From: Thermoanaerobaculia bacterium
GTDB lineage: Bacteria; Acidobacteriota; Thermoanaerobaculia; UBA5066; Gp7-AA6
Length of the DNA: 64,000 nucleotides
Assembly (NCBI GenBank): GCA_038203955.1
Contig: JBBRDK010000002.1
Span: 17,424-81,423, forward strand
Direction of reading: 5' to 3'
In this document: piece by piece, positions 1,190-62,687 of the stretch
How positions within the stretch are numbered: position 1 is the first letter of the stretch
Layout of the letters: each line of letters begins with the position of its first letter
Program-made: the position numbers and the translations under genes
The notes under the pieces: model-generated
Seen by the model: the letters and a program-made list of their open reading frames with translations, nothing else
Databases searched by the model: none
Told to the model about the DNA's origin: nothing

Positions 1190-3202
1190 ATGGTCATCTA
1201 CAACGCGGCTACGCGTGAGCTGACGGCGAAGATCGTGTACTACGGTCCGGGTCTGGGCGGCAAGACCACGAACCTGCACCTGCTCCACGAGCGCCTGGAG
1301 CCCGCGACCGTCGGGAAGCTCCTGAATCTCGCGACGCAGACGGACCGGACGATCTACTTCGACCTTCTTCCGGTCGAGCTCGGCGACATCAAGGGCTACA
1401 AGATCCGTTTTCAGCTCGCGACGGTGCCGGGACAGACCGCCTTCAACGAAACGCGCCGCGTCGTCTTGAAGGGAACCGACGGCATCGTCTTCGTCGCGGA
1501 TTCCCAGTGGACCATGCTTCCGAAGAACCTCGAAAGCTGGCAGAACCTCAAGGAAAACCTGAAGGCCAACGGGGTCTCGTTCGAGGGCATCCCGATCGTC
1601 ATCCAGTACAACAAGCGCGACTTGAGCGACATCCTCTCCGTCGACGCGCTGCAGGAGGCCCTCGGGCTTTCCGCCTATCCCTTCGTCGAAGCGGTCGCGA
1701 GCGCCGGACGGGGCGTCACCGAGACGTTCAAGCTGATTTCCAAGCTGACATTCGTCGATCTCCTTCGCCGGCTGCAGGGCCGGAAGCCCGAGGAGGCCGG
1801 GCCGCTCCCTCCCCGCCGGGAGCCGGACGACCTGCTCTCGTGGAAGGATTCACTCTTGAACCGGGGCGCGGCTCCCCCGCCGGCGCCCGCTCCCTCCCGC
1901 GAGGCTCCGCCGGCGGCCGATTCCGGATCCCTCGCGAAACGGCCTCTCGCGCTCGTGCCGTCGCTTCCCGACGAAGCGCCGTTCGAGACGGAGGACGCGG
2001 CGGACGTCGCGTCGGAGGTTTCCGCGGAGTCCGACGCTCCGTTCTCCGAAACCGGCGCCTCGCATCGCGCGGCCGCCGGCCCGCCGGCGCACTCCGACGG
2101 TCCGCCGCCTCCCTCCTCGGAGGCGTGGTCCACAGGCGCGCTCCCGGAGCTTTCGCTGCCCCCGCTGCCGGCGATCCCCGATCTCGAGCCGGCCGGCCCC
2201 ATTGCGGCGGAGACCACACCGGAGGCGCTCACGCGGGAATCCCTCGGTAGCCCGTCGCCCGAATCGCCGGAACCGCTCGAGTTCCTGGATCCCGCGACCG
2301 CCCTGGACGCTCCCTCGGAGATGGAGCACGGCGCGAGCTCGGAATCCGGCGCGAGCGCCGAGTCCGCTGCCACGCCGACGCTCGCTTCCGTCTCGAGCGA
2401 GGCTCGCGAGCCGGTCGAAGCCTCCCGCGGGGCGGCGTCAGCCGAGGCCGCGGTAAACGAGCAGACGGACGCCCGCTTCCGGGCTCTCGAGGCGAAGGTG
2501 GAAGAGGCCGTGGAGGAAATCGCCCGCGAGCGTGAGGAGCGACACCGCGCGGAAGTAGAACGCCGCCGCTCGGAAAGCGACGCGGCGGCGCTGACGGCGC
2601 GCCTGGAGACCATCGAGCGCGAGGCGCGGGACCTCGGAAAGACTCTTGGAGAAAAACACGACTCGTTCGAGGGACGAATCCAGGCGCTCGCCGGATCGCT
2701 CGAGGGACGGGACGACGTGGAGGCCCGGATTCGTGAGGCGCACGACCGGCTTTCCGCCAGCGAGAAACGGCAGCGCACCTACGAGGACGACGTCTCGATC
2801 TCGCTGCGCAGTTTCGGCGAGCGCGGCGAGAAGGTATCGGCGCAGATCGCCGGGATCGCAGAACGCCACGACCGTCTCCAGGAACAGATCGCCACGATCC
2901 ACCAGCAGATCGAGGTGCTCGAGGCCGCTCTCAGGGAGAAGACGTCGCAGAGCCGCCGCGAGGCGGATGACATTCGGACCGAGCTTCAGACGCTCCGCGG
3001 AGCGATCGAGGAGCGGATCGGGCACGGCCATCGCGAGGCCGAAGACATCCGGAGCCAGATCGCGCCGCTTCTCGAGGCCCACGGGCAGCGCGGCGCGGAC
3101 GACGAGCGCCTCTCGCAGGAGTTCGACCGCCTTCGGGAATCGCTGGCCGACTCGCTGGGAGACCTTTCGGAGCGGCTGCGGAGAGCCGTGCGGGGGGCGT
3201 AA
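1190..3202 (+). CDS. MglA-like Ras-family small GTPase (residues 1 to ~195) fused to a ~250-aa Pro/Ala/Ser/Glu-rich disordered linker and a ~230-aa coiled-coil C-terminal region
   Basis: N-terminus MVIYNAATRELTAKIVYYGPGLGGKTTN...TVPGQ...IQYNKRD matches the MglA G1/G3/G4 motifs almost position for position. The C-terminus is ERE/heptad-rich (EARIREAHDRL, LQEQIATIHQQIEVLEAAL). The ORF is unbroken for 670 codons. Confidence 0.7.
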   Translation: MVIYNAATRELTAKIVYYGPGLGGKTTNLHLLHERLEPATVGKLLNLATQTDRTIYFDLLPVELGDIKGYKIRFQLATVPGQTAFNETRRVVLKGTDGIVFVADSQWTMLPKNLESWQNLKENLKANGVSFEGIPIVIQYNKRDLSDILSVDALQEALGLSAYPFVEAVASAGRGVTETFKLISKLTFVDLLRRLQGRKPEEAGPLPPRREPDDLLSWKDSLLNRGAAPPPAPAPSREAPPAADSGSLAKRPLALVPSLPDEAPFETEDAADVASEVSAESDAPFSETGASHRAAAGPPAHSDGPPPPSSEAWSTGALPELSLPPLPAIPDLEPAGPIAAETTPEALTRESLGSPSPESPEPLEFLDPATALDAPSEMEHGASSESGASAESAATPTLASVSSEAREPVEASRGAASAEAAVNEQTDARFRALEAKVEEAVEEIAREREERHRAEVERRRSESDAAALTARLETIEREARDLGKTLGEKHDSFEGRIQALAGSLEGRDDVEARIREAHDRLSASEKRQRTYEDDVSISLRSFGERGEKVSAQIAGIAERHDRLQEQIATIHQQIEVLEAALREKTSQSRREADDIRTELQTLRGAIEERIGHGHREAEDIRSQIAPLLEAHGQRGADDERLSQEFDRLRESLADSLGDLSERLRRAVRGA

Positions 3203-3272
3203 GAAAGTTGAGAGTTTAGAGTCAGGAGTTCAGACCAAGAAGCCGGCGGTGTGCACTCTCAACTCTCAACTC
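3203..3272. terminator. putative bidirectional terminator hairpin built from AGTTGAG-type heptamers between the convergent mglA-like gene and era
   Basis: AGTTGAGAGTT ... AACTCTCAACT are perfectly complementary arms; the unit carries TGA on both strands; it lies between two convergent stop codons. Confidence 0.4.
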
Positions 3273-4207
3273 CCTCCCACCAGCCTCGATAGAAACCTCT
3301 CGTCTTCCCGCCAGTCCGCGCGGACGCGGACGGTGAGCTCTAAGAAGTAGCGCCGGCCGCTCTGCGCTTCGAGCTCCTGGCGGGCGGCGGTGCCGATGTC
3401 CCGGATCATCGTGCCGCCCCGCCCGACGATGATCCCCTTCTGCCCTTCCTTCTCGACCACGATGGACGCGGAGACGACCGTCAGGTTCTTCGCCTCGTCT
3501 TCGCGGACGGACTCGACCAGGACGGCGGAGGCGAAGGGCAGCTCTTCGCGCGTGCGCTCCAGAAGCTTCTCCCGCACGACTTCGCCGATCCATTCCGACT
3601 CCGGCGTCGCGGTCAGAAAGTCGTCGTCGTACGCCGCCTCGCCCGCGGGAAGGGCGGCGACGAGAAGGGAGGCCAGACGCTCGACGCCGTCTCCGGTCTT
3701 CGCGGAGATCGGAATCACGTCGCGAAAGGCATAACGGGCGGAAAAATCCGCGAGCAGCGGGAGCAAGGCGGGCTTGGGGAGAAGATCGACCTTGTTCAGG
3801 GCGAGAATGGCGGGCTTTCCGGCCCGCTCGAGAAGGCGGATCAGAAACTCCTCTCCCTTGCCGCGCCGATCGGCTGCGTCGATCACGAGCAGAACCAGGT
3901 CGGCCGTCGACAGCGCGTCCGTCGCGTCGCGAACCATGGCGGAATTCATGCGGTGCTCCGGCCGGTGGATCCCGGGCGTGTCCACGAGAGCGATCTCGGC
4001 CCCCGGCCGCCGCGCAATGCCCAGAATCCGCCGCCGGGTCGTCTGAGGCTTGTCGGAGACGATGGCCACTTTTTCGCCGACCAGCCGGTTGACGAGAGTG
4101 GATTTTCCGGCGTTCGGGCGCCCGACGACGGCGACCGCGCCCGCCCGGAAGGGGACGGCGTCTTCGGAGGGGACGGAGTCTCCGACGGGGACGGCGTCTT
4201 CGTTCAC
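3266..4207 (-). CDS. era: GTPase Era
   Basis: AVVGRPNAGKSTLVN G1 motif, DTPG, NKVD, C-terminal KH domain (VVREKLLERTREELPFA...). GTG start overlaps the corC stop as GTGA. Confidence 0.85.
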   Translation of the reverse strand: MNEDAVPVGDSVPSEDAVPFRAGAVAVVGRPNAGKSTLVNRLVGEKVAIVSDKPQTTRRRILGIARRPGAEIALVDTPGIHRPEHRMNSAMVRDATDALSTADLVLLVIDAADRRGKGEEFLIRLLERAGKPAILALNKVDLLPKPALLPLLADFSARYAFRDVIPISAKTGDGVERLASLLVAALPAGEAAYDDDFLTATPESEWIGEVVREKLLERTREELPFASAVLVESVREDEAKNLTVVSASIVVEKEGQKGIIVGRGGTMIRDIGTAARQELEAQSGRRYFLELTVRVRADWREDERFLSRLVGGS

Positions 4208-9285: not shown

Positions 9286-9411
9286 TCAAAGCTACCACGC
9301 GGGAAAGGCGAGCAAAAAGCGGGCCCCGGAAAATGCCGGAGCTCCCTCTAGAATCAACCCTCATCGAATCAGCCGTTTCCAGCGGGATTGCGTTCCCGCG
9401 GCCCGCGCGCC

Positions 9412-9987: not shown

Positions 9988-10049
9988 GATCAGGGCCTCC
10001 TTAATTGCGGTTCAAATTCTACCAAAACCCCAGCCTCCCGGGCGGACCG

Positions 10050-11099: not shown

Positions 11100-11126
11100 G
11101 CGGCGGGGAAGATAGCAGAACGAGGG

Positions 11127-11195
11127 TTAGCTCTCAGCTGTCAGCTGTCAGCTCTCAGCTGTCAGCGGTTCTCAGTTCTCAGTCGTCAGTTGCTG
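11127..11195. repeat. tandem heptamer array (CTCAGCT/GTCAGCT then TCAGTTC)
   Basis: ~10 units of 7 nt in the divergent spacer between the IDH-family gene and the cupin gene; TGA on the minus strand in every unit. Confidence 0.9.
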
Positions 11196-11776: not shown

Positions 11777-11826
11777 GAAGAAGTTGAGAGTTGAGAGTTA
11801 AGCGTCAAGACTTAAGCGCTGAGCCC
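11777..11826. repeat. tandem heptamer array (AGTTGAG / variants) between convergent genes
   Basis: gaagaAGTTGAGAGTTGAGAGTTAAGCGTCAAGACTTAAGCGCTGAG; stop codons in all frames on the plus strand. Confidence 0.85.
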
Positions 11827-16147: not shown

Positions 16148-18208
16148 TCAGTTCACCGGGCCGTCCGGATTCGAGCGCGGCGTGTCCTCGGAAGCGGGCG
16201 TCTCCTCCGGGACGGCCTCCGTCTCGATCGTCCACCGCTCGTAGACCTCGGCGGGAAGCTCGACGAGAAACCGCGACGGCTCCAGGATCACGTCGACCCC
16301 GTAACGGTCACGGGCGAGCATCGGATAGACCAGGTTGACCTCGTTCTTCGCGCGCGTGACCGCCACGTAGAAGAGGCGGCGCTCCTCTTCCAGCCCCTGG
16401 TCGGTGTTCGCGGACCGGTAGCTCGGGAACCGTCCTTCCGAGAGCCCCATCACGACGACGCGGCTCCACTCGAGCCCCTTCGCCTGATGGATCGAGGAGA
16501 GGACGACGCGGTCGTCGTCGGCCTCGCCCGCCACGACGTCTTCTCCCGAGAGCTCGTTGAAGAGCGTGACTTCCTCCAGGAACGCGGGCAGCGAGTCGTA
16601 CGACTGGGCGAACTGCGCGAACTGCTCGAGATCGTCGAGCCGCGCGTCCCCGTTGGGAAACTTCGCGCGCGCAAAATCCCGGTAGACGCCATCGACGACC
16701 GCGCGGATCGCCTCGGCCGGGGACGAGCGAACCGACGGAGACTCGAGGCGCCCGAGCAGGGTGCGGAACGGCTGCAGGGCGGCCGCCGCGCCGCGCGGAA
16801 GCTCGATTCCCCCGGCGCCCTCGCGCTCGCGGAACGATGCGAGCGGATCCGGCCGCCCGCCGATCGCCTGCCAGACCGCCGTCGCGGCGCGCTCCCCCAC
16901 GCGCGGGAAGAGCTTCAGTGCCCGCTTCCAGGACAGCTCGTCCTTCGGGTTCACGACGAGCCTCAGGAAAGCGAGGACGTCCTTGACGTGGCGTTGCTCG
17001 AAGAACCGCATGCCCGAACGGATCTCGTAAGGAATTCCGCGGCGCGTCAGCTCGATCTGGAGCTCCAGCGCCTGGTAATGCGCCCGATAGAGCACGGCGA
17101 GATCGGCCAGCTTCTCTCCCTCGTCGTGCCACTCGAGGAGCCGCTGAGCGACGAAGCGGGCCTGGTCGGGAATGTCGGGCAGCGCCACGACGGCGGGAAA
17201 CACTCCGCCGTCCCGGGCCGCGCGAAGGTCCTTCGGAAACTGCCTCACGTTGTGCGCGATCGAAGCGTTGGCGAGCGCCAGGATCTGCGGCGTCGAGCGG
17301 TAGTTGGTGGTGAGCCGGTACGTCTTCGCTTCCGGGTATCGCTCGGGGAAGCCGAGGATGTTCTCGAAAGACGCCCCCCGAAACGAGTAGATCGCCTGTG
17401 CGTCGTCGCCCACGACCGTTACGTTGCGGCGGACGCGGGCCATGCCGTCGACGAGATCGCCCTGAAGCCGGTTCGTGTCCTGGTACTCGTCCACGAGGAC
17501 GTGGTCGTAGGACGCCGCCATCTGCGCCGCCGTCTCGGGGCTCTCGTCGAGGAGCCGCTTCCAGAGCAGGAGCAGGTCGTCGTAGTCGCACGCGTTGCCG
17601 AGACGCTTGCGCTCCCGGTAACGCTGGAAAACGCCGGCGATCTCCGCCTCGAGGGCGGAGAAATGCGGGGCGCGCTCGCCCAAGACTTCCGCGAACGGCC
17701 GGCCCGTGTTGATCGTGTTGGAGTAGAGGTCGAGCAGCACGTCGCCCTTGGGGAAGCGGCGCTCGACGACGGGGATGCCGCGGTCCGACGTCGACGCCTC
17801 GAGGAGCTCGCGCGCGTCTTCCGGGTCGAGGATCGTGAAGTTCGGGGCCAGGCCCACCCGGACGCCGAAGCGCCGGAGCAGGCGGTTTCCGACGGAATGG
17901 AACGTCCCGCCGAGGAGACGCCGGGTGTCCACGGTGAGCAACGCTTCGACCCGCCGCAGCATCTCGCGGGACGCCTTGTTCGTGAAGGTCAGCAGCACGA
18001 TCCGCGAGGGGTCCGTCCCCGATTCGATGAGCCGGGAAACGCGGTAGACGAGCGTCCGGGTCTTCCCCGAACCCGCCCCCGCGATGACGAGCAGCGGGCC
18101 CCCGCCTGCCAGGACCACCTCCCGCTGCTCTTCGTTCAACTCCCGGTCGTAGTCGACGCGGTAATTCCGGAGAGGAACGGGCTTCTTGAGGACGTATCGG
18201 CGTTCCAC
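16148..18208 (-). CDS. UvrD/PcrA/Rep-family ATP-dependent DNA helicase
   Basis: GAGSGKTRTL Walker A, helicase motifs through VTRAK; 686 aa; GTG start. Confidence 0.85.
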   Translation of the reverse strand: MERRYVLKKPVPLRNYRVDYDRELNEEQREVVLAGGGPLLVIAGAGSGKTRTLVYRVSRLIESGTDPSRIVLLTFTNKASREMLRRVEALLTVDTRRLLGGTFHSVGNRLLRRFGVRVGLAPNFTILDPEDARELLEASTSDRGIPVVERRFPKGDVLLDLYSNTINTGRPFAEVLGERAPHFSALEAEIAGVFQRYRERKRLGNACDYDDLLLLWKRLLDESPETAAQMAASYDHVLVDEYQDTNRLQGDLVDGMARVRRNVTVVGDDAQAIYSFRGASFENILGFPERYPEAKTYRLTTNYRSTPQILALANASIAHNVRQFPKDLRAARDGGVFPAVVALPDIPDQARFVAQRLLEWHDEGEKLADLAVLYRAHYQALELQIELTRRGIPYEIRSGMRFFEQRHVKDVLAFLRLVVNPKDELSWKRALKLFPRVGERAATAVWQAIGGRPDPLASFREREGAGGIELPRGAAAALQPFRTLLGRLESPSVRSSPAEAIRAVVDGVYRDFARAKFPNGDARLDDLEQFAQFAQSYDSLPAFLEEVTLFNELSGEDVVAGEADDDRVVLSSIHQAKGLEWSRVVVMGLSEGRFPSYRSANTDQGLEEERRLFYVAVTRAKNEVNLVYPMLARDRYGVDVILEPSRFLVELPAEVYERWTIETEAVPEETPASEDTPRSNPDGPVN

Positions 18209-18210
18209 GT

Positions 18211-18303
18211 GTTGAGTTTATTGGAGTTGAGAGTGGGCGGTTCAGAGTTGAGAGTTGAGAGTCCGGCGGCCGGAACGAACGCTCAACGCTGAACGCGCTC
18301 AAC
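18211..18303. repeat. tandem heptamer array (AGTTGAG family) with a partly complementary GCTCAAC half
   Basis: gttgagtttattggAGTTGAGAGTgggcggttcagAGTTGAGAGTTGAGAGtc...gctcaacgctgaacgcgctcaacc. Confidence 0.85.
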
Positions 18304-18408
18304 CTTCCCCCTCCCGCCTCCCGCCCCGTCACAGTAATCTTTTTGCCTGCCTTCGCGTTCTAATGGACGGGCCTGGCGACGTTACGGGCCGGCCAAGGAG
18401 ACCGAGTC

Positions 18409-19477: not shown

Positions 19478-19866
19478 GCATCGAGAAGACGAGCTGCGCG
19501 CGAGTCGTCGCGGACCTTCGCAGAGGGACTCTGACGCCGCGGGAGGAGTCGCATCTCTTCGTCTGCCGGTCCTGCCGCGGCGAAGCGAGGCTCGCCGCCG
19601 CGTGGAAAGCGATGCCCTCCCCGCGGGACGGGGAGAGAGCCGACCCGGTCGACGAGAGCTTCGTCCAGGGCGTGCTGCGCCGGGTCCGCGAAGACCGGCT
19701 TCGGCGAGTCCGCCGCCGCATGGGGATCGCCGCCGCCGCCGCGCTGCTGTTCTTCTTCGCGGCCGGCCTCGGGCAGAGGGCGAATGCGAGCCCGCCGGAT
19801 GACGGCGACGAGTCGTATGCCCAGATCGTGACCGCCTCGCCGGAGTCGGTTCTGCCGAGTGAGTAG
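19474..19866 (+). CDS. anti-sigma factor (Cys-rich N-terminus, single TM)
   Basis: ATG overlaps the sigma stop (ATGA); HLFVCRSCRGE zinc-finger-like motif; TM segment IAAAAALLFFFAAGL. Confidence 0.6.
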   Translation: MSIEKTSCARVVADLRRGTLTPREESHLFVCRSCRGEARLAAAWKAMPSPRDGERADPVDESFVQGVLRRVREDRLRRVRRRMGIAAAAALLFFFAAGLGQRANASPPDDGDESYAQIVTASPESVLPSE

Positions 19867-19938
19867 TCAGTTATCGGTTAGCAGTCATCAGTCGTGGGGA
19901 AACTCGGAACTGACAACTGAAAACTGAGAACTGAAAAC
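19864..19938. repeat. bipartite heptamer array (TCAGTnn half, then AACTGAN half)
   Basis: agtcagttatcggttagcagtcatcagtc ... ggaACTGACAACTGAAAACTGAGAACTGAAAAC; the halves are mutually complementary; TGA on both strands. Confidence 0.85.
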
Positions 19939-19974
19939 GCGCGCGGCGCGCCTGCGCTCGTTTACACTCCGGCC

Positions 19975-27515: not shown

Positions 27516-27665
27516 GCGCGGATCGCGCGGATCCGGATGGGAGGCCGCGCCCGGCCGGTGGCGGCCGAACCATCCGCTCAAAATCGCCCGCGGATCGCGC
27601 GGATCCGGATGGGAGGCCGCCCGGCCGGTGGGCGGCCGAACCATCCGCTCAGAATCCGGCCGCAA
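27516..27665. repeat. tandem direct repeat of a ~75-bp element, each copy containing an internal (CGCGGAT)x2 and a ~44-nt imperfect hairpin
   Basis: GCGGATCGCGCGGATCCGGATGGGAGGCCGC(GC)CCGGCCGGTGG(G)CGGCCGAACCATCCGCTCA(A/G)AATC occurs twice, ~95% identical; located in the carB upstream region. Confidence 0.9.
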
Positions 27666-34974: not shown

Positions 34975-35036
34975 GGAGCTCTCAGCTCTCAGCTCTCAGC
35001 TCTCAGCTCTCAGCTCTCAGCTCTCAGCTCTCAGTC
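34975..35036. repeat. tandem heptamer array (GAGCTCT / CTCAGCT) x ~8
   Basis: Perfect period-7 array between convergent genes; it supplies the TGA stop of the minus-strand gene 35024-35722. Confidence 0.95.
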
Positions 35037-35722
35037 CTGAGTCCCCTGGTCTCCGCCTTCTTCCAGATCGCCATCTCGCGGCACAGCCACGTGCCGGCGA
35101 TCACCGCAGCGGCCCAGATGACGAAAGACAGCCCACGCGTCAACGCGGCGAGACCGCGGTCCCAGTCGAGGAGTCCGACCCGCGACAGCATCCAGTTCCA
35201 GTCGTGGATGGGATCCGGGACGAACCCCACGAGGGGAAGCTCCTGCGCCCGCGCGTCGCCGACGTACGCCGCGAGCCCGGACAGGGACGAGGCGAGCCAC
35301 GCGGCCGCGACCGTGATGCCGAACCAGTCCCGCTGACGCGCGAGCATCCATCCCGCCGCGACCGGCGCCGCCACCTGCGCCAGGCTTCCGCCCGCGATCG
35401 AGGGCCACTGCCCCGCCCAGGCGAGGACCAGGTGGCCGAGCTCGTGGAATCCGAGAGTGATTCCCCCGAAGAGGTCCGTCGAGAGCGGGTCGCGCAGCCG
35501 GCGAAGACCGGACCAGGCGAAGTAGACGACGAGGGGCGCTCGCCAGAGCCACGACCGGCCGGCGCACCATTCCCGGGCCTGCGCCTTCCAGGCGGAGAGC
35601 CGGGAGGACACGGACGCGGAGTCGATCACCGGCGGGGGGGAGGCGGGCCGAGGCGGCGATTTCCCGGCCTCGCGCGCCGTCGAGGGCGGGCGCGTCGAGG
35701 GAGGCGGGACGAACACTCCCAA
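35024..35722 (-). CDS. polytopic membrane protein with HExxH motif (possible M50/S2P-like intramembrane metalloprotease)
   Basis: GFHELGHLVLAW within a predicted TM helix; several further TM helices; N-terminus and start (TTG/GTG) uncertain. Confidence 0.4.
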   Translation of the reverse strand: MGVFVPPPSTRPPSTAREAGKSPPRPASPPPVIDSASVSSRLSAWKAQAREWCAGRSWLWRAPLVVYFAWSGLRRLRDPLSTDLFGGITLGFHELGHLVLAWAGQWPSIAGGSLAQVAAPVAAGWMLARQRDWFGITVAAAWLASSLSGLAAYVGDARAQELPLVGFVPDPIHDWNWMLSRVGLLDWDRGLAALTRGLSFVIWAAAVIAGTWLCREMAIWKKAETRGLRTES

Positions 35723-36473: not shown

Positions 36474-36507
36474 AGAAGTTATCAGTTGTCAGTTTTCAGT
36501 TTTCAGA
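36474..36507. repeat. heptamer array (TCAGTTN)x4
   Basis: tatcagttgtcagttttcagttttcag between the meaB stop and the mce start. Confidence 0.85.
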
Positions 36508-40360: not shown

Positions 40361-40401
40361 GACGATCGACGGATCGACGGATCGACGGATCGAGGGATCG
40401 T
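40361..40401. repeat. octamer tandem array (CGACGGAT)x4 with inverted ends (GACGATC...GATCGTC)
   Basis: gacgatCGACGGATCGACGGATCGACGGATCGAGGGATcgtc between convergent genes. Confidence 0.9.
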
Positions 40402-43940: not shown

Positions 43941-43993
43941 GACGTCGAGAGTTCAGAGTTCGGAGTCGAGAGTCGAGAGTTGAGAGTCGAAGT
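43941..43993. repeat. tandem heptamer array (GAGAGTY / AGTTCAG)
   Basis: cgaGAGTTCAGAGTTCGGAGTCGAGAGTCGAGAGTTGAGAGTCGAAGTC in the divergent spacer before argS. Confidence 0.85.
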
Positions 43994-44065
43994 CGGCCCG
44001 GGCGTCTCCGCCGACGCGCTCGGGCAGAACGGCAATTCTGCGCGGGAGACATATATTCTGCCGCC

Positions 44066-46093
<2,028 letters not shown>

Positions 46094-46097
46094 GATG

Positions 46098-46183
46098 GGT
46101 TATCAGATATCAGATATCAGATATCAGTTATCAGTTATCAGTCGGACGGACCGTAAACTCAAGACTGAAAACTGAGAACTGAA
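46098..46183. repeat. bipartite heptamer array: (TATCAGA/TTATCAG)x5, then (AACTGAN)x4
   Basis: ggttatcagatatcagatatcagttatcagttatcagtc...ctcaagactgaaaactgagaactgaagact; complementary halves; TGA on both strands. Confidence 0.9.
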
Positions 46184-46191
46184 GACTCCTC

Positions 46192-46551
46192 ATGAACAAA
46201 ATCAATCTCGCCCAGAAGCTCGCCCTCTTCCACGAGCCCTTCACGCCGAAGATCGTCGGGGACTTGAACGACAACCACGTCAAGCTGGTCAAGGTCCTCG
46301 GTGAATTCGTCTGGCATTCCCACGAGGCCGAGGACGAGATGTTCCTCGTGGTCAAGGGCCGCTTGACGATCAGCTTCCGGGACGGCGACGTGGAGCTCTC
46401 CGAGAACGAAATGCTCATCGTCCCGAAGGGCGTCGAGCACAGGCCCCTGGCGAGAGAGGAGGCGCACGTCCTGCTGATCGAGCCGAAGACGACCGTCAAC
46501 ACGGGGAATTCTCCCGGGGAGCGGACCGTGCCGGCGCCGGAGCGCATCTAG
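46192..46551 (+). CDS. cupin domain protein
   Basis: 119 aa; cupin motifs G(X)5HXH... (VWHSHEAEDEMFLVVKG) and PKGVEHRP. Confidence 0.7.
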   Translation: MNKINLAQKLALFHEPFTPKIVGDLNDNHVKLVKVLGEFVWHSHEAEDEMFLVVKGRLTISFRDGDVELSENEMLIVPKGVEHRPLAREEAHVLLIEPKTTVNTGNSPGERTVPAPERI

Positions 46552-46565
46552 AACGATTCGAACGG

Positions 46566-46608
46566 ATAACTGATAGCTGATAGCTGATAGCTGATAGCTG
46601 AAAACTGA
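46566..46608. repeat. tandem heptamer array (CTGATAG)x4 + CTGAAAACTGA
   Basis: Perfect period 7; TGA and TAG in every frame on the plus strand. Confidence 0.95.
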
Positions 46609-46610
46609 TC

Positions 46611-47471: not shown

Positions 47472-47483
47472 AGGGAGTTTGAA

Positions 47484-47516
47484 GCTCTCAGCTGTCAGCT
47501 GTCAGCTGTCAGCTCT
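47484..47516. repeat. tandem heptamer array (CTCAGCT/GTCAGCT)x4-5
   Basis: agctctcagctgtcagctgtcagctgtcagctctc; provides the TGA stop of the GHMP kinase on the minus strand. Confidence 0.95.
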
Positions 47517-48510
47517 CCAATTCCACCTCCAGGCCGCGGGAGACGACGGCGGCCGCGACCACGCGGCCGACACCTAGATCCGAGAGCTCCAAGCGGACTC
47601 CCGGCGTCGCCTCCGCGGGCGAGAGGATCACGACGAACCCGCCTCCCCCGGCGCCGCACGCCTTCCCGCCCCACGCCCCCACCGCGATCGCGGCGGCGAT
47701 GGCGCGCTCGATCACAGGCGTCGAAACGACCGGAGCGAGCCGCCGGCGGGCCTCCCATTCACTCGCGAGAGCCGTTCCCATGGCCTCGAAATCCCGGCGC
47801 GCCGCCGCGCGCGCCATCTCGGCCGCCGCGCGCCGCACGCCCTCGATCTCCCGGGTCACGGCGGCGTCTCCCTCGAGCCGCGCGCGCAACACCTCCCAGT
47901 TGTTCATCCCGGAAGAGTGCGCCGCCCCGGTGTCGTACAGCGTCAGGTGCCGCTCCCAGGCCTCGGGCTCCACGTCTTCCCTGGCCGCGCGGGTCGCGCC
48001 GGGCAGGAACTCGATCGTATGGAGGCCGCCGGCGAGCGCCGGATAGTAGTCCTGAACACCGGCGGGCTTCCCGAGCACCCGCGTCTCGACGTCGCGCACG
48101 AAGTCGACGCGGTCGACGCCCGCCATGTCCCTCGGCGCGAACCGTTCGAGGGCTCCCATCAACGCGACGGTCAGCGCCGACGATCCTCCCAGTCCCGAAC
48201 CGATCGGAACGGACGTTTGAAGCTCGATCTCGAGAGACTCCCGGATCAGCAGAGCATCGAGAATAGATCCCACGAGAGCCGCGCGCGGGTCGGCCAGCAG
48301 ACCATCGGATTCGGCCGAGCGGCAATCAAACGAGCCGTCCGACGCGAAAACCCGGAAGACCCCCTCGGAGGGCCGGACCCGGCAGGAGGCAAAGAGATCG
48401 ATGGCGACGTTGATCGTGAAGGTACCGGGATGCAGAACATGAAGCGGCCAGAGGTCGAGCGTCCCGCCAGCCAGATCGACGCGCGCGGGTGCCGAAGACA
48501 GAATCTTCAT
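47509..48510 (-). CDS. GHMP family sugar kinase (HddA/fucokinase-like)
   Basis: APARVDLAGGTLD N-terminus, GHMP ATP motif PIGSGLGGSSA; 333 aa. Confidence 0.7.
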   Translation of the reverse strand: MKILSSAPARVDLAGGTLDLWPLHVLHPGTFTINVAIDLFASCRVRPSEGVFRVFASDGSFDCRSAESDGLLADPRAALVGSILDALLIRESLEIELQTSVPIGSGLGGSSALTVALMGALERFAPRDMAGVDRVDFVRDVETRVLGKPAGVQDYYPALAGGLHTIEFLPGATRAAREDVEPEAWERHLTLYDTGAAHSSGMNNWEVLRARLEGDAAVTREIEGVRRAAAEMARAAARRDFEAMGTALASEWEARRRLAPVVSTPVIERAIAAAIAVGAWGGKACGAGGGGFVVILSPAEATPGVRLELSDLGVGRVVAAAVVSRGLEVELES

Positions 48511-48609: not shown

Positions 48610-48860
48610 GACTTGTCAGGCTGGACGTTCCGCCCCTCACCCCAACCCTCTCCCCCGGCGCGCGGGGACGCCGTAAGCAAGTCCTGACACTCGGCATCGC
48701 CTTCCACTTGAGTGCCGCCCCTCACCCCGCCCTCTCCCCGGCGCGCGGGGAGAGGGAGCGGGGGAGCTCAGCGTGGCTTCTTCGCCCGCACTGGCTAATA
48801 CGCTCGCCCCGAGAGGAGTCTCCTGACCGAAGGGAAGGAGGAGCCTCTCGGGGTGGGAGC
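48610..48860. repeat. REP-like GC-rich palindromic elements (two copies of CCGCCCCTCACCCCNNCCCTCTCCCCGGCGCGCGGGGA.. plus a CCCCGAGAGG...CCTCTCGGGG hairpin)
   Basis: Copy 2 is a perfect 10-bp stem CCCTCTCCCC/GGGGAGAGGG around GGCGCGC; copy 1 has a degenerate right arm; a second 10-bp stem lies 3'. Confidence 0.8.
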
Positions 48861-51011: not shown

Positions 51012-51046
51012 TGAGCTGTCAGCTCTCAGCTGTCAGCTTTCAGTGA
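51012..51046. repeat. heptamer array (GAGCTGT/CAGCTCT) between atpB and atpE
   Basis: gagctgtcagctctcagctgtcagctttcagtgac; intra-operon. Confidence 0.9.
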
Positions 51047-52155: not shown

Positions 52156-52200
52156 GAAGGCGCGCCGCCGGACGCGGGAAATGAGGGGGTCGGTGGAGGA

Positions 52201-52234
52201 GTTGTCAGTCTTCAGTTTTCAGTTTTCAGTTCAG
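52201..52234. repeat. heptamer array (TCAGTTT)x4
   Basis: gttgtcagtcttcagttttcagttttcagttcag. Confidence 0.9.
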
Positions 52235-52253: not shown

Positions 52254-52478
52254 TCAGCGATTCAGCCTTCCGGCGAGGCGGAAAAAGTTTACGAACGCGG
52301 CCGCAAGACCGAGCCCTCCGCCTACCCAGGAGGCGGCGCCCCCCCACCCGAACCGTCGAGCAATCCAGGCGCCCAGAAAGTAGCCGGCGAGGGGCCCCGC
52401 GAGGAAAAGAAGGCCCGCAGAGGTTCCCTCCGCGACGGCAGAGGCGCGGGAACGCCCAGGGGGCTCGGCATCACTCAT
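52254..52478 (-). CDS. AtpZ/AtpI-family small membrane protein (putative F0F1 ATPase-associated)
   Basis: 74 aa, two TM with Gly-rich helices; position immediately upstream of atpI/atpB. Confidence 0.5.
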   Translation of the reverse strand: MSDAEPPGRSRASAVAEGTSAGLLFLAGPLAGYFLGAWIARRFGWGGAASWVGGGLGLAAAFVNFFRLAGRLNR

Positions 52479-52493
52479 ATCGAGATCGATTCC

Positions 52494-52527
52494 GAACTGA
52501 GAACTGATAACTGAGAACTGAAAACTC
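52494..52527. repeat. heptamer array (GAACTGA / TAACTGA)x4-5
   Basis: ccgaactgagaactgataactgagaactgaaaactc; TGA every 7 nt on the plus strand. Confidence 0.95.
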
Positions 52528-55608: not shown

Positions 55609-55648
55609 GTTCAGTTCTCAGTCATCCGTTTTCAGTTCTCAGTTTCCG
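55609..55648. repeat. heptamer array (TTCAGTT / TCTCAGT)
   Basis: gttcagttctcagtcatccgttttcagttctcagtttcc between nuoL and nuoM. Confidence 0.85.
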
Positions 55649-58187: not shown

Positions 58188-58207
58188 GGGCGCCTCTCGC
58201 GGAGAGG

Positions 58208-58312
58208 CGCTGGGCGCTGGGCGCTGCGCAGCGGGCGCCGGGCGCCGGGCGCTGGGCGCTGGGCGAACGTCGAACGCCCCCGCCTAGCGCCTCCCGCCTC
58301 ACGCCTCACGCC
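58208..58312. repeat. GC-rich heptamer arrays (GCTGGGC/GCCGGGC)x8 followed by (CGCCTCA)x3
   Basis: ggcGCTGGGCGCTGGGCGCTGCGCAGCGGGCGCCGGGCGCCGGGCGCTGGGCGCTGGGCg...cgcctcccgcctcacgcctcacgcc; inside the nuo operon between nuoK and nuoJ. Confidence 0.9.
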
Positions 58313-59401: not shown

Positions 59402-60588
59402 TCAAGCCTTCAAAGCCGACTGCCGCGTGCCCGCCGGCTCGGACGCCAGCCGGTCGCGGCGGGCGAGACCCTGGCGCAGCTTCGCCAGGAAGAACATGAG
59501 CAGGAACAGCGCGCCGAAGATCCACCCGAGCCGCACGAGCCCGTCGGTGCGTCCGGGGGTCCACAGAATCGCGAGCGCGACGATCACGATGTTGACGAGC
59601 GAGAGGGGGATCATCCACTTCCAGCCGAGAGCCATCAGCTGATCGAATCGGTATCGCGGAAACGTGGATCGGAACCAGATGTAGCAGAAGATGAAGAACC
59701 CGACCTTCGCCAGGAACCACACGAAGGGCGGGACGATGTGGAGGAACGACAGCGCCTTGACGTGGCCGAAAGGCGGCAGCCAGCCGCCGAAGAACACGGT
59801 GACGGCCACGCACGAGATGATGATCATCGCCGCGTATTCGCCCAGGAAGAAGAAGGCGAACTTCACCCCCGAGTACTCCGTGTTGAACCCGGACACGAGC
59901 TCGGACTCCGCCTCCGGCAGGTCGAAGGGGTTGCGGTTGGTCTCGGCCACCCCCGACACGAAATAGAGAAAGAAGGAGAGAAGGCCGGGGAAGACGAACC
60001 AGAGCTGCATCCGGTCCTGCCGCATGACGATCTCGACGAGCGAGAGCGACCGCGTCATCAGGAGCACCGCGACGAGGGAAAGCCCCATCGGGACCTCGTA
60101 GGACACGAGCTGCGCGGCCGACCGAAGGCCGCCGAGCATCGAGTACTTGTTGTTGGAGGCCCAGCCGCCGAGGATGATCCCGTACACGCCGATCGAGGTG
60201 ATCGCGAGCAGGAACAGAAGCCCGATGTTGATGTCGGCGACCCAGAGCGGGGTCGAGACGTGCCGCGCCAGCCGGACCGACGGGCCCATCGGGATGACCG
60301 CCAGCGCGGTGAGCGCCGGGATGACCGCCAGCACGGGCGCTAAGAAATGAACGAACTTCTCCGCCCGCGCGGGCGTCACGTCCTCCTTCGTCACGAGCTT
60401 CAGGAGATCGGCGAGCCCCTGAAGCGTGCCCTTGGGCCCGACGCGGTTGGGCCCGAGCCGCACCTGCATGAAGCCCATGATCCGGCGCTCGGCGAGCACG
60501 ATGACGAACCCGACGATCGCGGGAACGACGGCCACGATCAGCAGCACCTTCACGTAGGTCAGGAAGGTGGGCGTGAGGATTTTCATGC
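59402..60588 (-). CDS. nuoH: NADH-quinone oxidoreductase subunit H
   Basis: VLAERRIMGFMQVRLGPNRVGP... NuoH signature; ATG is the internal MKILTPTF. Confidence 0.9.
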
Positions 60589-60602: not shown

Positions 60603-60742
60603 CGGGAATCGGGAATCGGGAGCCAAGCGACCAACGGGAGCGAGACGGCCGCGGTACGCCGCGGTCAACTAGATCGGGAATCGAAAAGGCGGGACGCCCC
60701 GGGATTCCCTCGTTTCCCGTTTCCCGTTTTCCGTTTTCCGTC
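60603..60742. repeat. heptamer arrays (GGGAATC)x3 and (CGTTTYC)x4 in the nuoD-nuoH spacer
   Basis: gGGAATCGGGAATCGGGAGCC ... cgtttcccgttttccgttttccgtcc. Confidence 0.85.
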
Positions 60743-60746
60743 CTCC

Positions 60747-61985
60747 TCACCTGTCCACCTCGCCCAGCACGATGTCGATCGTGCCGATCAGGGCAACGAG
60801 GTCTGAGATCAGGTGGCCCTTCGCCATCTTGGGCAGGGCCTGCAGGTTGATGAACGAGGGCGGACGGCAGTGCATCCGATAGGGCCGGTTGCTGCCGTTC
60901 GAGACGCAGTAGAAGCCGAGCTCGCCCTTCGGCGACTCGATCGACGCGTAGACTTCCTCGGCGGGCGGCTTGATCACGCGCGGGACCTTCCCGCGGATCT
61001 CTCCGGGCTCGAGCCGGTCCAGGCACTGGCGAAGGATGCGCACGCTCTGCCGCATCTCCTGGACGCGGACGATGTACCGGTCGTACGTGTCTCCGTTCTG
61101 CCGCGTCGGGACGGCGAAGTCGAGCTCGTCGTAGCACTCGTAGGGCTGCGCCCGCCGCAGGTCCCACTCGATCCCGGACGCGCGGATCAGGGGCCCGGTC
61201 AGGCCGTACTCGACGCACTCCGCGGCGGTCAGCACGCCGATCCCGACCGTCCGCCGCTTCCAGATCCGGTTGTCGGTGAGCAGCTGCTCGTAGTCGTCGA
61301 TGCGCCCTGGGAGGTCGTCGACGAACTCCAGGAGCCGCTCGACCCACCCGGCCGTCAGGTCGAACGGAAGGCCGCCGATCCGCATGCAGTTCAAGGTCAG
61401 GCGCGCGCCGCAATACTCCTCGAAGAAGTCCAGGATCTGCTCGCGCTCCCGGAACGCGTACCAGAAGGGCGTCACCGCCCCGAGGTCGATGCCGGACGTG
61501 CCGAGCCAGACGAGATGGCTCGAGAGACGCTGGAGCTCGTCCAGAATCACCCGGATCAGCTGAGCCCGCCGCGGGACCTCGACGTCGATGAGCTTCTCGA
61601 TCGTCAGGCAGAACGCGTGGTTGTTCGTCGCCGCCGCCACGTAGTCCATGCGGTCGGTGTGCGGAATTCCCATCGGGTACGTCTCGGTCTCGAAGAGCTT
61701 CTCGGTCCCGCGGTGCAGGAATCCGACGTCGGGGAGCGCCTCCAGGATCTTCTCGCCGTCGACCTTCAGCACGATCCGGAGGACGCCGTGCGTCGAGGGA
61801 TGCTGGGGCCCGAAGTTGAGCTCCATCTCCTGCACGTCGAAGAGCGTCGGAGGCTCTCCCGGCGCCGGGGGCGTGTCCCCCTGGGAGAGCGGCCTCGCGA
61901 CGCCGGCCGCTGCCGCGCGCTCCGCGAAGTGCGCGGCTTCGTCGCGCTCGGCCTGAGAGAGCTTCTCGTCAACCATGAGAAACAC
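60747..61985 (-). CDS. nuoD: NADH-quinone oxidoreductase subunit D (49 kDa)
   Basis: NuoD signature throughout (GPQHPSTHGVLR, ...HRGTEKL...); followed directly by nuoH, with no nuoE/F/G. Confidence 0.9.
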   Translation of the reverse strand: MFLMVDEKLSQAERDEAAHFAERAAAAGVARPLSQGDTPPAPGEPPTLFDVQEMELNFGPQHPSTHGVLRIVLKVDGEKILEALPDVGFLHRGTEKLFETETYPMGIPHTDRMDYVAAATNNHAFCLTIEKLIDVEVPRRAQLIRVILDELQRLSSHLVWLGTSGIDLGAVTPFWYAFREREQILDFFEEYCGARLTLNCMRIGGLPFDLTAGWVERLLEFVDDLPGRIDDYEQLLTDNRIWKRRTVGIGVLTAAECVEYGLTGPLIRASGIEWDLRRAQPYECYDELDFAVPTRQNGDTYDRYIVRVQEMRQSVRILRQCLDRLEPGEIRGKVPRVIKPPAEEVYASIESPKGELGFYCVSNGSNRPYRMHCRPPSFINLQALPKMAKGHLISDLVALIGTIDIVLGEVDR

Positions 61986-61987
61986 TC

Positions 61988-62070
61988 GGGAAACGGGAAA
62001 CGGGAAACGGGAAACGAAGGGAATCGAACCGCATGGGCGTTTTACGTTTTACGCTTTCCGTTTCCCGACC
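61988..62070. repeat. heptamer arrays (GGGAAAC)x4 and (CGTTTTA)x2-3 in the nuoC-nuoD spacer
   Basis: cGGGAAACGGGAAACGGGAAACGGGAAACgaagggaatcgaacc...CGTTTTACGTTTTACGCTTTCCGTTTCCC; the two halves are partly complementary. Confidence 0.9.
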
Positions 62071-62078
62071 TCGTTCCC

Positions 62079-62687
62079 TCACGACACCACCTTGCGATTG
62101 GGATCGCTGGCGCCCGGGCCGCCGCCTTCCGGCCATTCTTCCGGGTAGATCGCGGCGCCCGTGTCGATCCCTTCGAGGGGAAAGTCCTTGCGCAGCGGGT
62201 GGCCGTGGAACCCCTCCCAGGTCAGGATCCGGCGAAGGTCCGGGTGCCCCGAGAAGCGGATCCCGAACATGTCGAATGTCTCCCGCTCGCACCAGTTCGC
62301 CGCGAGATAGACGCGCGCGATCGAAGGGACGTCTTCGCCCTCGGCCGCGCCGCATTTGACGCGGATTCGGTCGTTCTTCGAGAAGGAGTAGAAGTGGTAG
62401 ACGACGTCGAAGCGCGGCGCGCGCTCCTTCCAGTCCACCGCCGTAACGTCGACGCAGTAAGCGAAGTCCTCGGCCTGCTTCAGGTGCCGGGCGACGTCGG
62501 CGATCTTCTCGCGGGCGACCGTCACCGTCACCTGGCCCGCGAATTTCTTGGAGGCGAGCACGGCGCCCGGGACGCCCGCGGAAAGAGATACGACCCACGG
62601 ATGGCTCGCCGCGTCCGCCGCGACCAGCTTCGGCTTCGCAACTTCTTTGGCACCGGTCGTGGCCGGGGGCGTGATCTCCTCGGCCAT
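62079..62687 (-). CDS. nuoC: NADH-quinone oxidoreductase subunit C (30 kDa)
   Basis: [22 protein letters not shown] NuoC signature; ATG is the internal MAEEITPP. Confidence 0.85.

Follow-up and report, generated by a model that had tools for sequence, protein, structure and literature searches.

A heptanucleotide-array hairpin between era and a Ras-like GTPase gene of a Thermoanaerobaculia bacterium appears to belong to a known class of dispersed intergenic repeats

The window analyzed here is a 64-kb stretch (64,000 nucleotides, nt) of the genome of a Thermoanaerobaculia bacterium, and the element in question lies at 3203-3272, where a gene for a Ras/Arf-like GTPase and era converge. The GTPase gene (1190-3202, plus strand), called mglA-like in a first-pass annotation of the window, encodes Arf/Ras domains and a long coiled-coil tail and ends with TAA at 3200-3202. 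On the other side, era (3266-4207, minus strand; MMR_HSR1 GTPase and KH_2 domains) ends with a TGA that reads TCA at 3266-3268 on the plus strand. The 63-nt spacer between the two genes is split into two half-arrays. The left, G-rich half-array (AGTTGAG, AGTTTAG, AGTCAGG, AGTTCAG; 3206-3234) starts 3 nt past the TAA of the GTPase gene, and the right, C-rich half-array (2.6 copies of ACTCTCA, as ACTCTCA, ACTCTCA, ACTC; 3255-3272) extends into era, whose stop codon it provides. Arms of 17 nt were reported by the repeat finder at 3206-3222 (AGTTGAGAGTTTAGAGT) and 3255-3271 (ACTCTCAACTCTCAACT); they are 94% complementary and have 32 nt between them. The inverted units of the stem are GAGAGTT and AACTCTC, and the 9-11 bp perfect stem described in the first-pass annotation was confirmed as a perfect 11-bp stem inside the 17-nt arms. 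The hairpin abuts the stop codons of both convergent genes.

The spacer was folded as RNA on both strands and compared with 200 dinucleotide shuffles. The plus strand folded at -28.1 kcal/mol (z-score -1.8), and 9 of the 200 shuffles were equal or better; the minus strand, which is the sense of era, folded at -38.2 kcal/mol (z -3.8), and 0 of 200 shuffles were as good. The interior between the arms showed weak pairing only. In all four closest genomes (the window and L001-L003; L numbers denote loci of other genomes), the era-sense RNA folded better than its complement, at -34 to -38 vs -23 to -28 kcal/mol. This advantage of 10-14 kcal/mol comes from 3-8 G.U pairs, which suggests that pairing is kept at the RNA level for the era transcript. 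On the plus strand, the tail after the stem (CCCUCCCA) contains no U-tract. On the era strand, a U-rich run (UUUCUUAC) follows the perfect 11-bp stem, and the best fold takes this run into the helix via G.U pairs. The region has the stable stem-loop just past the stops that is expected of an intrinsic terminator and lacks the short loop (~3-8 nt), with 32 nt between its arms, and it was not reported by the consensus terminator scan. The GAGAGTT/AACTCTC units at 3203-3272 contain no G3 tracts, whereas at least four would be needed for the quadruplex capacity that is specific to the GGGAATC subtype.

The era hairpin proved to be one of ~25 seven-base tandem arrays that occupy intergenic gaps here. 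When one scoring scheme (our own detector) was applied to all periods, the window contained 21 period-7 arrays, two period-8 arrays, and none of periods 4-6 and 9-12; Tandem Repeats Finder, which was run as well, returned dozens of period-7 arrays. On a gene map of the window derived from codon log-odds, with Pfam confirmation for the genes that matter, nearly all arrays were intergenic or overlapped just the last few codons of a gene. The Era protein of the window is 96% identical to Era of two Acidobacteriota metagenome-assembled genomes, and graded relatives are labelled Thermoanaerobaculia. In the window together with 26 Thermoanaerobaculia era loci (317 kb, 7.4% intergenic), 41 period-7 arrays were intergenic and 8 coding, and every other period had at most four intergenic arrays. 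An independent set drawn from metagenomes, covering the nuo loci of close relatives (33 loci, 310 kb), gave 26 intergenic period-7 arrays and one coding; the other intergenic arrays of this set were seven of period 14, three of period 8, and no more than one of any other period. Periods 6, 9, 12, and 15 were, as is to be expected, found in coding DNA instead. Per 100 kb, the window has ~33 period-7 arrays, Thermoanaerobaculia relatives have 9-11, and loci of other phyla have 0.2-1.3; the outgroup arrays at the era locus that exceeded a stricter cut-off lay on two Methylomirabilota contigs and one Neisseriaceae contig.

An all-against-all blastn comparison of the spacers yielded matches of 12-38 nt, and those checked fell within arrays; no flank or loop was common to different array spacers. 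A miniature or other dispersed mobile element (MITE) was ruled out, as the similarity between spacers ends at the array edges and neither loops nor flanks are shared. Five unit families were defined by spacer similarity. The arrays show the marks of heptanucleotide simple-sequence repeats (the LSSR, STRR, and Xanthomonas types, where LSSR stands for long simple-sequence repeat and STRR are the heptanucleotide repeats of Calothrix PCC 7601): head-to-tail 7-nt units in at least 2-3 copies, an excess of period 7, intergenic confinement, dispersal, variation per site, and inverted pairs. The finding belongs to this known and functionally unexplained repeat class, and its units even coincide in part with those of other phyla (AACTGAN, GGGAAT).

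With regard to gene location, the first-pass annotation had placed 3203-3272 and five similar sites at convergent gene ends and had taken them to be probable bidirectional terminators. The convergent position was right for 3203 and 40361 only. The sites at 19864 and 46098 lie between same-strand plus genes, the site at 61988 lies between nuoC and nuoD, and the site at 18211 lies in a divergent spacer, so that four of the six (three same-strand, one divergent) are elsewhere. Each of the six spacers between convergent genes in the window has an array (a heptamer array in five, an octamer array in one), as do three of its six divergent spacers. In the window and its era-locus relatives, arrays were found in 3/22 divergent vs 11/20 convergent spacers, counts in which orthologous spacers are not independent.

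Arrays were also found inside operons. Eleven complex I genes (nuoA, B, C, D, H, I, J, K, L, M, and N, with no E, F, or G) form an operon on the minus strand between 63569 and 52530, and array inserts occur at five of its positions: as inverted pairs at nuoC/nuoD, nuoD/nuoH, and nuoJ/nuoK, and as single arrays at nuoL/nuoM and past nuoN. Further arrays lie at the junctions of pyrR-like/pyrB, meaB/epimerase, and atpB/atpE (atp F0 cluster), and around an AtpZ-like open reading frame (ORF). This 74-aa ORF (52254-52478, minus strand) was absent from the gene-caller map and matched PF09527 (ATPase_gene1, AtpZ-like) with E=9e-6, a match that narrowly misses the Pfam cut-off; after it come, in order, an atpI-like ORF, atpB, and atpE, and it lies between two oppositely oriented CAGTTNT arrays. 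The hairpins begin 0-10 nt past stop codons. Array hairpins within the nuo operon, which encodes an obligate multi-subunit enzyme, are hard to square with efficient termination, which would do harm at the nuo, atp, pyrR-like/pyrB, and meaB/epimerase junctions. As many arrays lie within essential operons, they are unlikely to be dedicated transcription terminators.

The first-pass annotation was correct in that inverted half-arrays form long hairpins, an architecture that recurs throughout the window. About two-thirds of the array-bearing spacers contain inverted pairs or self-complementary arrays that folded better than shuffles (z -2 to -6.6). In the window and its relatives, spacers with two detected arrays had best-strand z-scores of -1.7 to -6.6, beyond -2.9 in all but one. 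Among the five other sites named in the first-pass annotation, four folded better than shuffles (18205-18310, z -2.2/-3.3; 19860-19950, z -5.05; 46090-46195, z -2.8; 61980-62082, z -2.7). No such advantage was seen for several single arrays, with z near 0, or for the convergent spacer at 40361-40401, which turned out to hold an octamer array rather than a heptamer half-array (GATCGACG, 4.6 copies, 40364-40400; z -1.2/-1.0), despite a 14-bp stem formed by unique flanking sequence. Self-complementary arrays, such as those of AGCTGTC, which generate CAGCTG plus T, folded as well (z -2 to -3.5). Most single-array spacers had z near 0 (34977-35034, 11782-11799, and 46565-46609), and the exceptions were self-complementary or had a degenerate partner arm. 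An inverted partner matching at least 11/14 nt was present in 14/30 array spacers of the first set, and ~14/17 spacers of the nuo set were inverted pairs by our own reading of the folds. In 8/9 spacers of the window with two separate arrays, both arrays are of one unit family in inverted orientation, which is far from chance given five families and two orientations. The arms usually agree at 5-6 of 7 positions, giving helices interrupted by small internal loops. A design rule of 6 bp plus one mismatch was considered and is not claimed, the enrichment being modest (6-bp segments 13% vs 8%; 1x1 loops 39% vs 28%).

The hairpins have a polarity. In the array-bearing spacers of the window, L001-L026, and L080-L112, predicted G-C pairs had G on the 5' arm in 556 cases and C on the 5' arm in 310, and 32 spacers were G-first vs 8 C-first (binomial p=0.0002, with some orthologous spacers counted and independence therefore imperfect). 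No polarity was observed in array-free spacers (1474 vs 1469 pairs; 69 vs 54 spacers) or for A-U pairs. Because an inverted repeat is identical on both strands, this polarity is a property of the hairpin class and not of insertion orientation. One conceivable reason for it is that a G-first hairpin never exposes a C-rich arm to Rho. On the sense strands of many array spacers, the 5' arm often opens, immediately past the preceding gene, with two stops in tandem (UGAUGA) and then a stretch rich in purines (GAAGG, GGAAGG, GAGG).

The same junctions were compared among relatives. The era spacer of the window and L001-L003 contains GAGAGTT / AACTCTY halves of 2.5 to 6 units. In L013, AGGTGAG x5 stands opposite CCTCTCT x4 (z -6.6); in L024, GGGATTC stands opposite GAATCCT/AGATCC (z -3 to -4); and only one array, of CAGGTGG, is present in L022. 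In L006 and L008, runs of T and A border GC stems, which gives the classical shape of a bidirectional terminator, and L014, L017, L018, and L023 have a CCCTCTCCC palindrome. The spacer is nearly lacking in L011, L015, L019, and L021. A hairpin of some kind is thus present in most relatives, and it seems that a stem-loop of some kind is favoured at this junction, where a role in the formation or protection of 3' ends would be reasonable. The nuoC/nuoD junction is a GTGA stop/start overlap in many relatives vs a 93-nt array hairpin in this genome. Other relatives have independently gained different inserts at this very point: GGCGGAA heptamer arrays (L087, L089, L100), an octamer inverted pair (L083), units of GGGACAC type (L097), or inserts other than arrays, namely a CCCTCTCCC...GGGAGAGGG palindrome (L082, L108) and a 27-nt tandem duplication (L080). 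The overlap or different inserts in relatives indicate that the array hairpin at nuoC/nuoD is an insertion and not a required signal, and that the array hairpins are lineage-specific inserts in stop-codon junctions.

Outside the Acidobacteriota, heptamer inverted pairs were seen in Methylomirabilota (L027:1544-1602 and L029:1101-1159) and Neisseriaceae (L058:3518-7448), in the form of ATTTCGG x4 directly adjoining CAATCCG x3.7 and of AGCAGTT / ACTGCTC arrays flanking 300-550 nt segments. In Terriglobia, L028 (1515-1546 and 5002-5027) and L076 (5181-5208) contain period-9 arrays of the related units ACACAGAGG / GAGGGCACT, which hints that other acidobacterial classes may prefer a different repeat period. 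A telomere-like heptamer, (CCCTAAC)x5.5, lies between convergent genes at L024:12462-12500. Another dispersed element is a GC-rich palindrome of the form CCCCTCACCCC..CCCTCTCCC-loop-GGGAGAGGG, found at 48630-48770 of the window, in the era spacer of L014, L017, L018, and L023, and at nuoC/nuoD of L082 and L108. It looks REP-like, and in relatives it occupies the same junction types as the heptamer arrays. At 27517-27656, a 268-nt spacer between minus genes contains two copies of a 72-nt unit, 94% identical, with the GC-rich palindromes GGATGGGAGGCCGCC..GGCGGCCGAACCATCC.

The remaining arrays of the window are described by unit family. To the GAGAGTT family belong the spacers starting at 3203, 11776, 18209, and 43923. 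The second of these is convergent and holds a single AGTTGAG x2.6 (11782-11799) that is unstructured (z ~0.2-0.5). The other two are divergent: an inverted pair GAGAGTT... / AACGCTC... (18224-18303) lies 15 nt upstream of the start of a uvrD-like gene, and an array of GAGAGTT/GAGAGTC (43947-43995) consists of direct copies only. The AGCT[C/G]TC family includes the spacers starting at 11100, 34975, 47472, and 50958. In the divergent spacer at 11100, AGCT[C/G]TC x5.4, which contains the palindrome CAGCTG, is followed by GTTCTCA x3.4 (11129-11191; z -3.4/-3.5). A single perfect AGCTCTC x8.3 (34977-35034) in a convergent spacer overlaps the stop of a minus gene (35024-35629) and is unstructured (z -0.1/-0.6), and AGCT[C/G]TC x4.6 with a self-complementary CAGCTG core (47483-47517), also convergent, overlaps the stop of a GHMP-kinase gene (z -2.1/-1.9). 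AGCTGTC x4.3 (51014-51043) lies in the atpB/atpE spacer.

The CAGTTNT / AACTGAN family comprises the spacers starting at 19867, 36469, 46094, 52156 (two arrays), and 55607, together with the second array of 11100. An inverted pair TCAGTTA... / AACTGAN... (19867-19938; z -5.05) lies directly past the stop of a plus gene and upstream of the same-strand gene for chorismate synthase, and a pair of TATCAGA/T x5.9 and AACTGAN x4.7 (46101-46187; z -2.8) fills the spacer between argS and a cupin gene, both on the plus strand. AGTTNTC x4.3 (36477-36506) spans the meaB stop at the junction with the epimerase (glyoxalase-family) gene, and TCAGTTC x4.9 (55611-55644) fills the nuoL/nuoM spacer. Around the AtpZ-like ORF, AGTTTTC x4.6 (52200-52231) lies downstream, and GAACTGA x4.7 (52494-52526), directly past the nuoN stop, has the opposite orientation. 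A long-range stem between these last two was dismissed, as the 74-aa ORF lies between them and they are two single arrays in consecutive spacers.

The GGGAAAC / GGGAATC family occupies the spacers starting at 60587 and 61986, both in the nuo operon. The nuoD/nuoH spacer holds CGGGAAT x2.7 and CGTTTCC x4.4, ~90 nt apart (60603-60741), and CGGGAAA x4.3 with CGTTTTA/CGTTTCC x3.7 (61987-62070; z -2.7) fills the nuoC/nuoD spacer from stop to start. The GGCGCTG / GGCGTCA family has the spacers starting at 417, 58188, and 15979; the pair GGCGTCA... / ...CCAGCGC (423-511; z -2.8/-3.6) fills the spacer between the pyrR-like gene and pyrB, both on the minus strand, and GGCGCTG x8.6 with CGCCTCA x3.6 (58206-58312; z -2.7/-3.4) lies at nuoJ/nuoK. 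A single GATAGCT x6.4 (46565-46609; z near 0) lies between two plus genes. The last codons and stop of four minus-strand genes lie inside arrays (era, 3266-3268; a 201-aa ORF, 35024-35034; meaB, 36496-36506; GHMP kinase, 47509-47514), so that their C-termini would change with copy number. Over the whole window, Rfam covariance models gave 0 matches at gathering thresholds, and a scan for tRNA and tmRNA found none. Two explanations of the units were dropped. One was the provision of stop codons in all three frames: judged by eye, a stop on one strand is present in many units, though not in every one, and its side is variable. A strand-specific RNA motif, such as a HutP-like NAG-N4 site, does not fit single arrays in both orientations relative to the sense strand or the GGGAAAC and GGCGCTG families, which lack the motif.

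Comparable repeats have been described in other bacteria. In the 2007 survey by Mrázek et al. of long simple-sequence repeats (5-11 nt) in prokaryotes, according to the summaries in PMC4679880 and PMC4692102, heptanucleotides were the commonest, with an intergenic bias, a sporadic phylogenetic distribution, and an origin by polymerase slippage proposed, all as in the present case; in these summaries, hairpin architecture, arm polarity, and operon position are not addressed, and the richest genomes include other phyla, with Acidobacteriota unmentioned. The heptanucleotide repeats of Calothrix PCC 7601 are among those mentioned in PMC4692102. In Xanthomonas, 89-93% of the GGGAATC arrays are intergenic, at a mean distance of 28 nt from the upstream ORF. 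Each genome has 70-75 inverted pairs, divergent spacers are under-represented among the sites, the arrays differ between species, and most of them are transcribed; the authors left their function to be explained (Rehm et al. 2015, PMC4692102). Like these arrays and the GGGGA(C/T)T arrays of Nostoc (PMC4692102), those of the window are dispersed period-7 tandems, ~90% intergenic near the end of an upstream ORF, which vary per site in length and sequence between related species and form facing inverted pairs with a G-rich array on each strand. The Xanthomonas unit itself occurs here (CGGGAAT at 60603-60621; GGGATTC in L024), and the convergent pairs of Xanthomonas appear to share the G-first arrangement. 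Whereas Xanthomonas has one dominant, quadruplex-capable unit, the present genome, of another phylum, has at least five unit families, mostly quadruplex-incapable and demonstrably placed in nuo and atp junctions.

In marine Beggiatoaceae, cyanobacteria, and Bacteroidetes, TAACTGA arrays lie mostly just upstream of start codons (MacGregor 2015, PMC4679880). Their unit is nearly that of the AACTGAN arrays at 19908, 46155, and 52494, the last of which includes one exact TAACTGA, and they too are intergenic, often ending a few nt before a start with no obvious Shine-Dalgarno sequence. However, the Beggiatoaceae arrays comprise 169 direct sets and a single inverted one and favour one orientation upstream of starts, whereas both orientations and frequent inverted pairs were found here. 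Heptamer repeats of Nostoc were reported to affect reporter expression, with no mechanism given (preprint, 10.1101/2022.06.06.494920).

The REP/BIME elements of enterobacteria are proposed as a working analogy for the arrays, which likewise form imperfect extragenic palindromes at 3' ends and between cistrons. REP/BIME palindromes are transcribed and strain-variable and occupy these same positions, and they stabilise the upstream mRNA or attenuate transcription without abolishing read-through. REPs have one common consensus and are mobilised by RAYT (IS200/IS605-like) transposases. By contrast, the arrays studied here have no conserved consensus or core; their stems are built of tandem heptamers from at least five unrelated or weakly related unit families, and no sign of a transposase was noted, though no search aimed at one was made in these 64 kb.

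On balance, we consider it probable that the hairpin at 3203-3272 represents heptanucleotide tandem arrays spread over the genome, which grow by slippage, form REP/BIME-like extragenic stem-loops, and as a class are not dedicated terminators. Arrays would arise and grow by replication slippage in the only sites that tolerate insertions, the gaps that start at stop codons, and they would persist mainly if their halves pair, so that the insert collapses into a compact stem-loop resembling a REP/BIME extragenic palindrome. At the era/GTPase-gene junction, the stem-loop would most likely be a 3'-terminal structure common to the two mRNAs. Given the U-rich run past the perfect stem, it may act on the era strand as a pause site or a weak terminator, and on both strands it could be a barrier to 3' exonucleases after factor-dependent termination; the 3' ends of mRNAs would probably be marked, defined, or protected by the hairpin at era. 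RNA polymerase would have to pass such structures within operons, and this passage is what makes the class unsuited to be a dedicated bidirectional terminator.

Several points weigh against this interpretation. Slippage alone leaves period 7, the recurrence of a few units, and the G-rich 5' arm unexplained, and the REP analogy fails on one defining point, the common consensus. Any RNA-level role of the arrays is something we infer, and RNA-level selection is not demonstrated outside the era spacer: among same-strand spacers, five folded better in the sense direction, three in the antisense direction, and one equally. In addition, about one-third of the arrays are single and unstructured, and three arrays lie in divergent promoter regions, so that hairpin function cannot explain the class as a whole.

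Alternatively, the arrays would be neutral or selfish, hypermutable by-products of slippage, with the inversion arising from their formation (co-expansion in the arms of a small palindrome already present, or template switching between these arms) together with a tolerance filter. This is possible, and we allow it a real if minor chance. Presence or absence, unit, and copy number change freely at the same junction among relatives, arrays have been inserted where relatives have a 4-nt overlap, all spacer types carry them, single arrays occur in both orientations relative to transcription, and studies of similar repeats found no function (PMC4692102, PMC4679880). However, the unit repertoire is strongly non-random, as is the G-first polarity (32 vs 8 spacers, compared with 69 vs 54 when arrays are lacking); inverted pairs of three different units have appeared at the era spacer across lineages, and the era-sense RNA consistently folds better via G.U pairs, none of which fits a neutral by-product well.

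The proposal of the first-pass annotation, that bidirectional termination is the dedicated role of the inverted arrays and needs no U-tract, proceeding through the hairpin alone or with a factor, appears improbable to us. It was plausible for a 3' end at era and could not be upheld for the class. In its favour are the arrays in every convergent spacer of the window (6/6), the start of the hairpins 0-10 nt past stops, and the retention of some hairpin in the era spacer of most relatives; a consensus scan of the first 20 kb found 15 stem plus U-tract sites vs 12.2 +/- 3.7 in shuffles, and the lack of an excess of canonical sites would call for another termination signal. The resemblance extends to the stable stem-loop past convergent stops and, on the era strand, to the U-rich run after the perfect stem, although the best fold takes this run into the helix. 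In contrast to intrinsic terminators, the era hairpin has a 32-nt loop and no U-tract on the plus strand, and arms in the class are 32-90 nt apart with no compact loop. The era hairpin is confined to the ends of transcription units, whereas the class is not: like hairpins occur at nuoC/nuoD, nuoD/nuoH, nuoJ/nuoK, pyrR/pyrB, and argS/cupin and upstream of the uvrD-like gene, and arrays lie in atp and pyr junctions and beside start codons in three divergent spacers. The nuoC/nuoD spacer does not exist in many relatives, and single arrays do not fold. The statement that the genome has essentially no U-tracts after these stems was overstated, given UUUCUUAC on the era strand and good stem plus U-tract sites at 9323-9342 and 10029-10042 (both minus), which lie downstream of minus genes in spacers without arrays and indicate that U-tract terminators exist in this genome. 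No bacterial RNA polymerase examined to date, the mycobacterial one included, is known to terminate intrinsically without a U-tract, which counts against a hairpin-only terminator.

A reading of the inverted arrays as a selected, structure-specific kind of operon punctuation seems quite doubtful at present. They would form long, regularly mismatched helices with the G-rich arm first, which RNA polymerase and coupled ribosomes would pass because the C-rich arm stays hidden from Rho, and which would still set 3' ends or the stability of segments; a heptamer-specific slippage or copying process would be common to Thermoanaerobaculia, Methylomirabilota, Xanthomonas, cyanobacteria, and Beggiatoaceae.

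We also think it very unlikely that the arrays are DNA-level or protein-binding elements, that is, sites of a heptad-periodic binding protein or non-B DNA (cruciform, G-quadruplex) acting on chromosome organisation or expression. Few unit families recur at many loci, related units occur across phyla (AACTGAN resembles TAACTGA of Beggiatoaceae, and GGGAAT(C) is the Xanthomonas unit), and single arrays persist without RNA structure. Rehm et al. tied a four-G-tract requirement to quadruplexes (PMC4692102), and (GGGAAAC)x4.3 at 61987-62016 fits it as the only array of the window to do so. However, most units (GAGAGTT, AGCTGTC, CAGTTNT) are incapable of quadruplexes, no candidate binding protein emerged from this analysis, and units differ between relatives at one site, so that a conserved protein would need to co-evolve with them. 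Nor is there much to recommend the idea that operon hairpins loop out the insert and keep the upstream stop beside the downstream start, preserving or enforcing translational coupling: the ancestral nuoC/nuoD junction is a GTGA overlap, the fold of this spacer in the window closes between UGA (nt 2-4) and GUG (nt 98-100), and 15 array hairpins have their base <=10 nt from the stop and <=6 nt from the start, but folds span stop to start in 17/32 array vs 26/77 array-free spacers, a difference that is not significant (Fisher p=0.085), Shine-Dalgarno-like motifs have much the same low frequency in the two classes (31% vs 34%), and convergent or divergent spacers are beyond its reach.

In many bacteria, no long simple repeats are commoner than heptanucleotide arrays. 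The present genome has them in several units and at an unusually high density (~33 per 100 kb in the window), and it comes from a class that has been little studied and is largely uncultured. For 3203-3272 itself, the conclusion is an ordinary one: the repeat is of a known kind, and its role as a terminator is putative. Arrays colonise stop-codon junctions even within a complex I operon, the hairpin architecture recurs at one junction with unrelated units, and a fixed G-first polarity is present that ordinary spacer hairpins lack. These features constrain any model of the arrays and argue against annotating such hairpins as terminators in high-GC metagenome-assembled genomes. If the operon-punctuation reading were true, repeats that have lacked an explanation since 1990 would gain both a function and a design rule.

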